NCBI GenBank assembly: GCA_965153355.1
Contig: OZ231126.1
Span: 9,920,001 to 9,984,000, forward strand
Direction of reading: 5' to 3'
DNA length: 64,000 bases
Origin: Flaccisagitta enflata
Lineage: Eukaryota
Of the stretch, positions 17,973-44,900 are shown piece by piece. The translations under genes and the position numbers were made by a program. The notes beneath the pieces were generated by a model that was not told the DNA's origin, searched no databases, and saw only the letters and a list, made by a program, of their open reading frames with translations. Each line of letters opens with the position of its first letter. Positions within the stretch are counted from its first letter, which is position 1.

Positions 17973-20900
17973 TCACGTGGTGACGACTTTATACATCTCG
18001 TTCCTCCTTTGTTTCGTGATGGGAACTTGGTCTCTAATAGCCTTCAGCTTTTCCAAATCAATCTCGGCGTAAACAATGTCTTCTTTCTCATCAGTTTTGG
18101 CGACTACCGTACCCCAAGGATCCATGACTGTACTGTGACCCCAGGCCACGTAAGAAGCGGAAGTGTCTCGAGCCGGTGAGACAGTCGCCACGTACACTTG
18201 ATTGTCCAACGCGCGTGAGCGGGCCAACGCCTCCCAATGAGCCGGACCTGTCGTCATGTTGAACGCGCCGGGGTACTGCAGGAGAGGCAAGATGAAGGAT
18301 TTGAATGAAATTGGACGAGGTCTGCAACAAGTGACACGGGTTTACAACTTACAATATCGTCATGGATGGGTGGGTACATGGGTTAGGGTATAACAATGGC
18401 CAAAAAAAAAACTAGACGCTCAATATTTATCAATAACTTATAAACCACTTAAACTTTTTGCTTAAAATCCATGAGCATATAAAAGAGCTTCAAAAACTCC
18501 ACAAATCTAGACCAAGCAGAAATTTTTAACTCAATTCGTTTAGAAATGACATAAGTTTAAAGTTCAGTACTCAAATTCTTGATTGACGAATAAAGCGGAA
18601 GTAATAGTATATACATGGAGTAACTGTCAACCGTAACGCATTATAAGGAAAATGTGTTACAATCGTTATTTCATTCGTTTCTGATTTTGAAAAAATCTAT
18701 AAATAGACAGTTTCGATCATATCTCTCTCTCTTTTTCTCTCTCTCTCTCTCTCTCTCTCTCTCTCTCTCTCTCTCTCTCTGTCTCTGTCTCTGTCTGTCT
18801 CTCTCTCTCTCTCTCTCTCTCTCTCTCTGTCTCTCTCTCTCTTTCTCTGTCTCTCTCTCTCTTTCTCTGTCTCTCTCTCTCTCTTTCTCTGTCTTTTTCT
18901 GTCTTTCTGCTCTTTCTCTCTCTCTTTCTCTCTCTCTCTCTCTCTCTCTCTCTCTCTCTCTCTCTCTCTCTTCTCTCTCTCTCTCTCTCTCTCTCTCTCT
19001 CTCTCTCTGTCTCTCTCTCTCTCTCTCTCTCTCTCTCTCTCTCTCTCTCTCTCTCTCTCTCTCTCTCTCTCTCTCTCTCTCTCTCTCTCTCTCTCTCTCT
19101 CTTCTTTCAATGACGCTATCGATCTTTGCCATTAATGATTCAAAGTACGACTTCTCAAAAAATTGATCGATAATGGTAGCCAATAACAGATGATTAGAAG
19201 TGCGACATAGAGAGTCAATTGATAATGGCAAAGTTGTACATAAAGAAATAGAAATTGAGTTAGTGAAAAAGTGTTTTAGGCAAACTAATAAAGAGAAATT
19301 AGGGCAAGTTCTTTTAGTAGTTTCATTTAATGAGAAAATGTGATATGTCTCAATTTCATGTCAGAATTCACCAACAATGTCCCTGGACATCCATGGATTT
19401 TTCAAGATTGGCCAAAAAACGGCCTTGGATTTCCTAGGCCAGGCCAGGATATGTCCTTGGACTTGCGCAATATTCCTACTATAAAAGCAGATTGTCTAGG
19501 CCAGGCCAGGTGATGTTTTTGGTCTTACACATAATTCCGCCATAAAATCAAATTTGCTCTGTCTTGCAAATCTGATTTGCCAGAGAACCACTAACATATC
19601 ATTTGCTAATTTAAAAAAGATACAGAATGAAAGGACTTTGCCACCACTGTGACCGGCATTACCAGCGTTTGGACCGGCATAACAAACGATTTCACATTGA
19701 AAACAAACCCCTTGCTGGTAAGACCTGCAGCATTGGAAAACAAGACTACTCCATGAGCAAATCTGAAAATTTGGCTCTGTTTTTGCGCACTAATGACGAA
19801 AAACATATGAAAATATGGCTGAAAAAAAAATCATCAAAGAAATCCTTACTTCAACTGCTTGATACACTGATATGCGCTCAAACTCGCTATAAAGAGACTA
19901 AACTATCTTCCGGAAATACAAGCAAGGCTTTCAACTCACAAGATACAATCAACAAACTTGCATCTCCAATATTCAAATGGGTGCACAAACTGATGAAGAA
20001 ATTTCGTTCAGTGTTGTTGCAACACTCTTCCTCCCTCTACAATTTACTCAAAATCCTATAATCTGTTAATTGCAATGCTCTTATATGTTCAATTTTGTAT
20101 TTTGTCTTGAAGGCTGTTACTTAAATTTAGTTGTTAACTTGTTGACTAGCTCTGATTATTGGACCATAAGCTTGTTGTTAATCAGGATGAATTCAAAATA
20201 AGCGAAGATTCGCATAAGTGCATTTCCACCCCTTCACTCACATATGCTTATCAAAAAAATTCCTGTATTTTCATTTTTTCAAAGCCTATAAATAGTTGGA
20301 ATTCGCATCTCAAAGATGGATGAAGGTATTGTTGAAATGCAAAATGAATCAAACTCGGCTTCCGAAGCTGAATCAGAATCAACCGAGTGGTCAGACAGTG
20401 AATCAGAACTGGATAAAAACACATATGGACAAAAAAATTCAACCAAAACATTTGTCACTCTCCTTCACTACATGCTTCAAAAAAAGGATCTCACTGGAAA
20501 TATTCGCGAAGATATGGATACGCTTTTTGAACAATTTCAAAAAATTGTTCTCATTCAAAATCTGCTGCCCAAGCTGAAATTTTATCAAGAATTTATGAAG
20601 GAATATCGTAAAACTCTTCAGGGCCTTCAAAAAGAAAACAAAATTGATGGCATTTCAAAGAGTGAAAAAAATTGTGAAAAAGATGCCTTTGTAGACTCTT
20701 TTGACCAATTTGAAGACCGGTTTGAAAGAAATTTACGGCAATTCTGCAAGGAAAAGAAGATAAAAGAAATGACTGATTCTTGCACCTCAGAAGAAGAGAC
20801 CATGGAGGAAGATGAAGCAGAGACTGAAAAAACGCAGAGACAAGTACAAGATGAGCGGGACGATGCTACAGAAGATGATACGGAAGATGATGATACGGAA

Positions 20901-41900: not shown

Positions 41901-44900
41901 ACAGTGGTGGCAAAGTCCTTTCATTCTGTATCTTTTTTAAATTAGCAAATGATATGTTAGTGGTTCTCTGGCAAATCAGATTTGCAAGACAGCAAATTTG
42001 ATTTTATGGCGGAATTATGTGTAAGACCAAAAACATCACCTGGCCTGGCCTAGACAATCTGCTTTTATAGTAGGAATATTGCGCAAGTCCAAGGACATAT
42101 CCTGGCCTGGCCTAGGAAATCCAAGGCCGTTTTTTGGCCAATCTTGAAAAATCCATGGATGTCCAGGGACATTGTTGGTGAATTCTGACATGAAATTGAG
42201 ACATATCACATTTTCTCATTAAATGAAACTACTAAAAGAACTTGCCCTAATTTCTCTTTATTAGTTTGCCTAAAACACTTTTTCACTAACTCAATTTCTA
42301 TTTCTTTATGTACAACTTTGCCATTATCAATTGACTCTCTATGTCGCACTTCTAATCATCTGTTATTGGCTACCATTATCGATCAATTTTTTGAGAAGTC
42401 GTACTTTGAATCATTAATGGCAAAGATCGATAGCGTCATTGAAAGAAGAGAGAGAGAGAGAGAGAGAGAGAGAGAGAGAGAGAGAGAGAGAGAGAGAGAG
42501 AGAGAGAGAGAGAGAGAGAGAGAGAGAGAGAGAGAGAGAGAGAGAGAGAGAGAGAGAGAGAGAGAGAGAGAGAGAGAGAGAGAGAGAGAGACAGAGAGAG
42601 AGACAGAGAGACAGAGAGAGAGAGACAGAGAGAGAGAGACAGAGAGAAAGAGAGAGACACAGAGAGAGAGAGACACAGAGAGACAGAGAGAGAGAGACAG
42701 AGAGAAAGAGACAGAGAAAGACAGAGAAAGACAGAAAAAGACAGAGAAAGAGAGAGAGAGAGACAGAGAAAGAGAGAGAGAGAGACAGAGAAAGAGAGAG
42801 AGAGACAGAGAAAGAGAGAGAGAGAGAGAGAGAGAGAGAGAGAGAGAGAGAGAGAGAGAGAGAGAGAGAGAGAGAGAGAGAGAGAGAGAGAGAGAGAGAG
42901 AGAGAGAGAGAGAGAGAGAGAGAGAGAGAGAGAGAGAGAAAGAGAGATATGATCGAAACTGTCTATTTATAGATTTTTTCAAAATCAGAAACGAATGAAA
43001 TAAGGATTGTAACACATTTTCCTTATAATGCGTTACGGTTGACAGTTACTCCATGTATATACTATTACTTAAGCGGATTTCAGCGCCAGAAAACATGACA
43101 CATTTTGTCTTACATATTCTGTAAAATGAAAAAATGAAATAAACCATACGAAATCAAAGGTGAAAATGAAGTATTTTTAATTCTCTACAAGATGGAATCA
43201 AGCAGAAATCATGATTTTGCTTCGTTTACAAGCTGTATCAATGCAAAGTTGGTTACTGTAAAAAAGATGGAAGCATGATTTGAGTTTTTTGAGCAGTTAT
43301 CTTTTAATTATCATAACTTGTAAAGTTCTGAAGCTAGAATGATCGGAAGGGGCTCAAATGAAAGATTTTTTGAAGATCTTTAAAACCGTCATGGATTAAA
43401 AGGTTCCAGCATTTTTTAGTACGACGCAATCAACAGTTAAAAGAACGCGTCTAGTTTTTTTCTTTGCCACTGTTACAACCCGATCTCACTCTCTCCCTCT
43501 CACACACACACACTCACCCACACACACTCACCCACACTCACTCACCCACACTCACTCACCCACACTCACTCACCCACACTCACTCACCCACACTCACTCA
43601 CCCACACTCACTCACCCACACTCACTCACCCACACTCACTCACCCTCAATCACACTCACTCACCCTCAATCACACTCACTCACCCACCCTCAATCACACT
43701 CACTCACACTCACCCTCAATCACACTCACACTCACTCACACTCACCCACACTCACTCACCCTCAATTACACTCACTCACTCACCCACACTCACTCACCCT
43801 CAATCACACTCACTCAGTCACCCACACCCACACTCATTCACCCACACTCATTCACCCACACTCACCCTCACCCACACTCACCCTCAATCTCACTCACACT
43901 CACACTCACACTCACACTCACACTCACACTCACACACACACATGTAGTGCCTTAAATCGCTTTTCAACTCGATCATCACAGAGACGGATCAACGTATGGA
44001 CGGACAAAGCATCTTACTGAGTCGAGAGTCCGCGACTAAAAATTAAGGAAGGCAGGTTGTACCTATGCTAGCGCGACATGAATCGGTATTTATCTCACAC
44101 ACACGCATCAAACTACCAGACCACGTGATCCACTTACCACTAAGAGTTTGCAGTCTAAATCTCGGTAAACGAGCGCCATCTCTGCGAAGCGGATGTCGTA
44201 GCAAATCCCGACGCCAATTTTACAATCGTCGGTGGCGAAAGAAGTGAAGGATTTTCCAGGAGACAGAATCTCGCTCTCTTTAAAAGTGATCTTGCCGGGG
44301 ATGTCAATGTCGAATAAATGAACCTGGAAAAGAGGAGATGGGGGCATGACGACAGCATTGCACTGCACTTGAGACAGTGTCATTAGAGAAATCAGAAGCC
44401 ACTTTTTCAGTGTTATCAATTCCCGCGATAATAGTCAGAAAATACGCATCCAACTTGGACAAACAAAAAACCGCCAACAGTTTTTATTTTCCTTCATCAT
44501 TATTTTGGCGGTGCATGTTTATTTCAGCTCCGTTTCGAAAATAGGAATTAATGAAAGATTTAATCTTTGAAGTTGAACTGTGTATGAGAGCAAACTTGAT
44601 TACTTGCTTATGACACGGAGCAAGATGGCGTGAAAATTGCCAGTCACACAAATTTAGCACATTTTTTGCATCCAAAAGCTATGCAAAAATTATCCTGCAA
44701 GTTACCAGATGTACCCAAGTATTATATAAAGAAAATCCTCTTAGGTCAGGTGGCCATCATGGCCAGTTTGGGGCCGTATATATTGTTAAATCTTTAAGAA
44801 AAAGTGCCAAAAAATCAGAATCTGGCAACAATGAATAAAATGCCTTGATTTCTTATGGCTGTGGTCTACATAAAACTAAAAAATCCTCTCTTTTTACAAA

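Follow-up and report, generated by a model that had tools for sequence, protein, structure and literature searches.

Does a 24.5-kb element in the genome of Flaccisagitta enflata join a retrotransposon and long inverted repeats in one mobile unit, or are several elements nested at one site? The element lies on contig OZ231126.1 of assembly GCA_965153355.1, within a stretch of 64,000 nucleotides (nt) that is called the window here (forward-strand positions 9,920,001 to 9,984,000 of the contig; all coordinates below count from its first letter). A preliminary description of the window had seen Polinton-like ends around a core of the long interspersed nuclear element (LINE) type, and had proposed either a Polinton-derived vehicle with a LINE as cargo or an undescribed hybrid element. 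Such a combination of LINE core and Polinton-type ends, if real, would define a new class of mobile elements; what was found points instead to ordinary nesting. The locus is probably a low-copy, non-autonomous, foldback-like DNA element, not assigned to a superfamily, in which two unrelated retrotransposons are nested.

Comparison of the window with itself confirmed a 24.5-kb element with two inverted arms of ~3.7 kb, and this comparison and the alignment of the arms bore out both the long inverted repeats and the exact 6-bp duplication AAGCGG of the preliminary description. The arms and their limits are as follows.

18593..18598: left target-site duplication, AAGCGG
18599..22269 (+): left inverted arm with the terminus AAGTAATAGTATATAC, resuming as AATA at 28967-28970 past an inserted long terminal repeat (LTR) retrotransposon
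18722..19100: (CT)n-derived subterminal array of the left arm; its right-arm counterpart, at about 42450-42950, is ~120 bp longer
39271..43070 (-): right inverted arm
43071..43076: right target-site duplication, AAGCGG

In the blastn search of the window on itself, 18722-22269 matched 42839-39275 with 97.6% identity including gaps, and 18599-19108 paired with 43070-42540. The arms were also aligned globally after scripted removal of the nested LTR element. The outermost columns of this alignment were identical at 122 of 123 positions, and the outermost 22 bases of the two arms were the same. Past the (CT)n tract, which measures ~380 bp in the left arm and ~500 bp in the right, the arms were 99.7% identical, with 10 mismatches in 3148 aligned bases and 35 gap columns made up of indels of 15, 12 and 5 bp and single-base gaps. 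The 22-base terminus AAGTAATAGTATATACATGGAG was found only at 18599 (+) and 43070 (-) with up to three mismatches allowed (shuffled sequences gave an expectation of 0), and the exact AAGCGG hexamer stands directly outside each end of the element. The ends can also be parsed with termini that read AGTAAT, in which case the duplication is 8 bp long and has one mismatch. The inverted repeat did not continue into the core or the loop between the arms (the local alignments scored 21 and 24; shuffled sequences averaged 20.8 and reached 29), so that no simple trace of a deleted arm is visible.

The region between the arms holds, beside the LTR element, a unique core of 10,300 bp (28971-39270). The preliminary description had reported a 10.3-kb core with an intact LINE of three open reading frames (ORFs), and this was found again; all three frames are intact and on the minus strand.

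28971..29779 (-): LINE 3' untranslated region (UTR), which may include some remaining loop sequence; the 3' end of the LINE lies within 28971-29540
29780..31780 (-): LINE ORF3, 666 amino acids (aa) from the first ATG
32100..35036 (-): LINE ORF2, 978 aa, with RVT_1 (6.1e-27) and Exo_endo_phos_2 (1.1e-09)
35023..38349 (-): LINE ORF1, 1108 aa, with three CCHC-type knuckles at residues 688-745
38350..38630 (-): probable LINE 5' UTR, GC 0.52
38631..39270: low-copy loop, 640 bp, with two 132-nt direct repeats (38715-38846 and 38913-39044)

The relation of the LINE to the arms was investigated with contigs of three public DNA runs from three studies (X1, X2 and X7), which were compared with 22200-42199. 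The summed depths were as follows.

Mean over 13 LINE bins (29537-38207): X1 ~2590, X2 ~46, X7 ~7.1
Mean over three bins of arm or loop that contain no high-copy repeats: X1 ~138, X2 ~15, X7 ~0.65
LINE to arm ratio: X1 ~19, X2 ~3, X7 ~11

The LINE exceeded the arms in all three runs, and the arms had the lowest depth within 22200-42199. On single X1 contigs the depth was 1424-1479 for the LINE and 99-161 for the arms. From ORF3 through ORF1 inclusive the depth of the LINE was level, which indicates that most of its copies are full length. Many variant LINE contigs were present and related ORFs occurred on other contigs. The LINE, including ORF3, is thus a multicopy family in its own right, and the copy number of the inverted-repeat element is low. 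The preliminary description had named a LINE that occurs elsewhere without inverted repeats as the first half of what would speak against its proposal, and the 3-19x depth in three DNA runs points to just such copies.

The segment between the LINE and the right arm also separates the two. An X1 contig (38635-39896, depth 99) and an X2 contig (38693-39464) cross the junction of loop and right arm; the loop, low-copy like the arm and joined to it on single contigs, thus belongs to the inverted-repeat element and not to the LINE. The limits of the LINE are accordingly distinct from those of the element around it. Its 5' end was placed at ~38630-38664, upstream of which the GC content falls from 0.52 to 0.39. 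The presumed 5' junction includes a 33-nt AT-rich segment (38631-38663) that is common to another, far more abundant repeat; in X1 and X2 the loose ends on either side of the segment show a fixed consensus. The two 132-nt repeats of the loop are 83% alike and rich in GC hairpins with TTCG loops. When 17000-45000 was searched against Rfam, nothing matched at E up to 0.1, and the repeats thus correspond to no known ribozyme or RNA there.

The second nested element was likewise confirmed, with its coordinates corrected.

22270..28962 (+): nested LTR retrotransposon, LTRs at 22270-22680 and 28552-28962

Its two LTRs are identical at all 411 bases (0 mismatches), the duplication ATTG flanks it at 22266-22269 and 28963-28966, and a TGG primer-binding site lies just 3' of the 5' LTR. 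Among ten internal ORFs, Pfam recognised a domain in one, a fragment of RT_RNaseH at 23430-23786 (7.9e-14), and with this sole fragment the element is a deleted derivative. Direct LTRs, target duplication, primer site and pol remnants are all present, and the element is an LTR retrotransposon.

The element is flanked by two exons of a host gene, which lie within open frames at the coordinates given here.

17976..18341 (-): last exon of the NIT2-like (CN_hydrolase) gene, 1.2e-19
44111..44434 (-): preceding exon, HLFD...CYDIRF, with the catalytic-cysteine motif

As the last and the preceding exon flank the element, the insertion in an intron of a NIT2-like gene holds, and the intron is the last one. 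Earlier exons of the gene were found near 48400-49000.

Without the nested retroelements the element measures ~8 kb and consists of two 3.7-kb arms and a loop of ~0.6-1.2 kb (0.64 kb, plus up to 0.57 kb more depending on the 3' end of the LINE). The locus would have formed by the insertion of an inverted-repeat DNA element into the last intron of the NIT2-like gene, which gave rise to the 6-bp duplication; this element was presumably a cut-and-paste transposon that has made at least one move in trans, in agreement with the earlier view that it is unable to move by itself. A full-length and apparently intact LINE would have entered by target-primed reverse transcription, and the deleted LTR element via an integrase that left a 4-bp duplication. 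The LINE would neither have made nor have needed the inverted repeats, and the near-identity of the arms could have come from conversion between them or from a recent origin.

The closest architectural analogue appears to be the foldback-like class (Foldback of Drosophila, and Galileo of the P superfamily), whose long inverted ends with internal repeats, short loop and target duplication recur in the present element. For Galileo, PMC3573991 describes very long inverted ends with variable-length subterminal arrays of simple repeats, a short unique loop, many copies that consist of ends without a transposase, and a short flanking duplication. Galileo arms are ~0.3-1.2 kb long and the duplication is 7 bp, compared with 3.7 kb and 6 bp in the present element, which further differs from foldback-like elements in its inward-facing orphan ORFs in each arm, its low copy number and the lack of a known autonomous partner.

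These arm ORFs number two per arm, both facing inward.

19615..20061 (+): ORF-a, 148 aa from stop to stop, with a CxxC...H....H motif and no family match
20316..21029 (+): ORF-b, an acidic orphan of 237 aa; its right-arm copy (40507-41235, -) has 242 aa

The right-arm copy of ORF-a (41490-41936, -) has an in-frame stop. Pfam gave no family above threshold, and no transposase or Polinton domain, for ORF-a, ORF-b and nine further arm ORFs; the ESM Atlas gave no usable match for ORF-b, and the predicted structure of ORF-a (pLDDT 49.0) was too poor for a fold search. A metagenome scan at JGI for the terminus returned nothing. The relatives of ORF-b form one cluster of 11 members on 25 contigs. Ten full-length members from metagenomes are 97-99% alike, and five differences from both arms of the window are common to all of them. 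Contigs of X2 diverge from the right arm by 1.1-1.7%, and the two arms differ from each other by only 0.3%, which suggests that the arms evolve in concert or were recently copied from each other. The four substitutions between the arms that fall within ORF-a or ORF-b all alter the protein, one of them to a stop, and this comparison gives no sign that either frame is under constraint.

Several observations weigh against nesting in a foldback-like element. Only 4 bp separate the LTR element from the inner end of the left arm, and the 3' side of the LINE comes within 0-570 bp of that same point; with 8-18 kb available, two insertions at one junction are unlikely by simple random nesting. The crowding might be explained by a target deletion at the insertion of the LINE, so that the arm ends where the LINE begins, or by a preference of retroelements for the base of a long hairpin. 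No poly(A) tail was found for the LINE, with no A-run and only a TTCAA-rich end at 28971-29000, and no flanking duplication either, the 8-9-mers around it being at chance level. The mobility of the inverted-repeat element rests on one insertion, as no further copy flanked by another duplication was seen, and the LINE may already have been inside when the element moved. Finally, the depth difference between LINE and arms is a difference in summed contig depth, which is not copy number, along a stretch that has no single-copy control.

An unlikely but more far-reaching reading is that the inverted-repeat element is either the first member to be seen of an undescribed kind of DNA element with few copies, or a Polinton-like virus stripped of its genes, with near-identical 3.7-kb ends that bear orphan genes and with a junction that serves as a preferred landing site of retroelements; the LINE with its conserved third gene would be a separate matter.

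The Polinton-derived vehicle of the preliminary description, in which a non-autonomous shell would transport the LINE and depend on an autonomous Polinton for mobilisation in trans, is not supported by the data and appears quite improbable. The inverted repeats, the 6-bp duplication and the near-identity of the arms would all suit it. However, Pfam gave no pPolB or rve integrase for the ORFs of the arms, the core and the LTR element that were compared with it, and no ATPase, protease or capsid domain for those of the arms and core, which agrees with the absence of Polinton genes already recorded; neither the terminus nor the arm protein had a match in scans of IMG/VR; and the abundance of the LINE is 3-19x that of the arms. 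Polintons have 5'-AG termini. With the exact 6-bp duplication the terminus here reads AAG...CTT, and an AG end needs the imperfect 8-bp duplication. The inverted repeats and the 6-bp duplication are the features that clearly link the ends to Polintons. PMC12220804 reports inverted, near-identical ends of hundreds to thousands of bp, duplications of 5-6 bp and sizes of 15-25 kb for Polintons, Mavericks and Polinton-like viruses, all of which resemble the present element. In contrast to those, it reaches such a size only through its two nested retroelements, reads AAG at the terminus if the exact duplication is taken, and lacks the defining genes, Polintons being by definition elements that encode pPolB and an integrase (PMC5499653).

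It is very doubtful that the locus contains no transposon at all and that its ends, produced by segmental duplication in inverted orientation or by faulty assembly, mimic a target duplication by chance. Such an origin would be in line with the low copy number, with the lack of a transposase and with the metagenomic variants of the arm ORF (the ten full-length, 97-99% alike members), which resemble alleles of one locus. Against it, both arms stop at one and the same base, with an exact 6-mer outside each, for which the chance is ~1 in 4096 per register, and contigs of two runs cross the junction between loop and right arm. The arms also differ by 10 substitutions, three indels and the length of the (CT)n array and are therefore not one sequence assembled twice.

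A LINE that is site-specific for this DNA element, in the manner of Tx1, is highly improbable. The LINE does lie within a DNA element at or near a special point, the junction of arm and loop, and there is a precedent in Xenopus, where PMC6719617 describes composite elements of Tx1 LINEs that target Tx1d DNA transposons; an APE-type LINE inside a DNA transposon is common to both cases. The Tx1 LINE is site-specific in that account (PMC6719617), whereas the LINE in the window is far more abundant than the element that hosts it. With arms far rarer than the LINE, most LINE copies must lie outside such elements, and the window provides a single case.

The undescribed hybrid, in which LINE proteins and inverted repeats would form one functional unit, has a nearly negligible probability, for it is favoured only by the co-location of the parts and the intactness of their ORFs and ends, and faces a depth of the LINE 3-19x that of the arms, full-length LINE copies without arms as indicated by the level depth, a low-copy segment between the LINE and the right arm, own limits of the LINE inside the element, and target-primed reverse transcription, which makes no inverted repeats.

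Nesting in a foldback-like DNA element thus remains the preferred reading, and it makes the locus a clean case of long inverted repeats around a retroelement that mislead classification. It also makes it a case of a very long inverted repeat inside an intron that would evolve in concert, with insertions clustered at one junction.

To judge from its domains, the core is an APE-type LINE whose ORF2 is predicted to encode an apurinic-type endonuclease (APE) and a reverse transcriptase (RT); from the type of ORF1, and not from a tree, we take it to be I/Jockey/R1-like. In PDB, ORF2 matched the L1 ORF2p (7e-15) and R2 (1e-14) about equally, and a search with its endonuclease part alone returned rows at chance level (E 0.64-0.67), so that the LINE could not be placed in a clade. 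The relatives of ORF2, all in other assemblies, comprise 13 members of a 97% cluster together with two sequences at 49%; outside this small family it has only 20-35% identity to anything. ORF1, which overlaps ORF2 by 14 nt, had no match in Pfam. The LINE resembles other APE-type LINEs with a gag-like ORF1 in its three knuckles, its overlapping ORF2 with APE and RT and its many full-length copies, and differs from them in a conserved third ORF downstream of pol and a diverged ORF2, and in that no poly(A) tail was found.

This third frame, ORF3, is open from 32134 and overlaps the stop of ORF2. Five full-length relatives with 83-98% identity, all intact and 763-789 aa long, were found in other assemblies, together with a sixth that is partial; the additional 117 N-terminal residues of these relatives stem from a GTG start chosen by a prokaryotic gene caller. 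The spacer of 320 nt between ORF2 and the ATG of ORF3 (31781-32134) contains two ~65-nt repeats. The frame of ORF3 is open across this spacer in all five full-length relatives, and translation could start upstream of the ATG or ORF3 could be coupled to ORF2. An exhaustive HMMER search of 1.84 billion representative proteins added three fragmentary relatives at 38-44%. Pfam contained no relative of ORF3, the best ESM Atlas value (0.76) was under the level of a lead, a metagenome scan at JGI returned nothing, and the predicted structure of the C-terminal part (pLDDT 50.5) was too poor for a fold search. With its intact relatives and a contig depth like that of ORF1 and ORF2, ORF3 behaves as a real gene of the LINE family. 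The LINE adds a lineage with a conserved, intact ORF3 that belongs to no detectable family and has a handful of relatives among 1.8 billion representative proteins. A limited literature search gave nothing directly on a third ORF in LINEs, and we make no claim on what is published.

For transcription, ~6% of one poly(A) RNA run was compared with 22200-42199. Of the 529 placed reads, 526 were partial fits, all at low-complexity spots, and expression of the stretch was not seen in this part of that one sample.

An extremely abundant, short motif family, ...ACGCAACTCTATAAG.GGCTTTGTCCGTCCGTC..., often beside microsatellite-like runs, was observed at 43990-44040, at 49550-49625 and at 39870-40490, the last with a mirrored counterpart in the left arm. 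Its summed depth in X1 was ~4e5, compared with ~140 for the neighbouring arm, and it is probably a very high-copy repeat that resembles a miniature inverted-repeat transposable element or a short interspersed nuclear element.

The surroundings of the host gene showed several further features. Within the NIT2-like gene, a tandem 104-bp duplication (48471-48681, 93% alike) repeats part of an exon. A neighbouring host gene is represented by an exon-like ORF of the mitochondrial-associated sphingomyelin phosphodiesterase family at 49794-50579 (-) (2.2e-26). Just downstream of the NIT2-like gene lie two long intronless ORFs (12151-14154 and 14995-17616, both on the minus strand) with weak zinc-finger and Myb-like matches, which have a 170-bp similarity to 8568-8737. 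Farther along, 1394-7852 (-) is an open frame of 2152 aa that consists almost entirely of C2H2 zinc fingers (zf-H2C2_2, 38 stretches) and has internal DNA repeats, and in 9451-11636 the two strands differ markedly in composition (GC skew 0.50, AT skew -0.83) and there are long open frames of low complexity.

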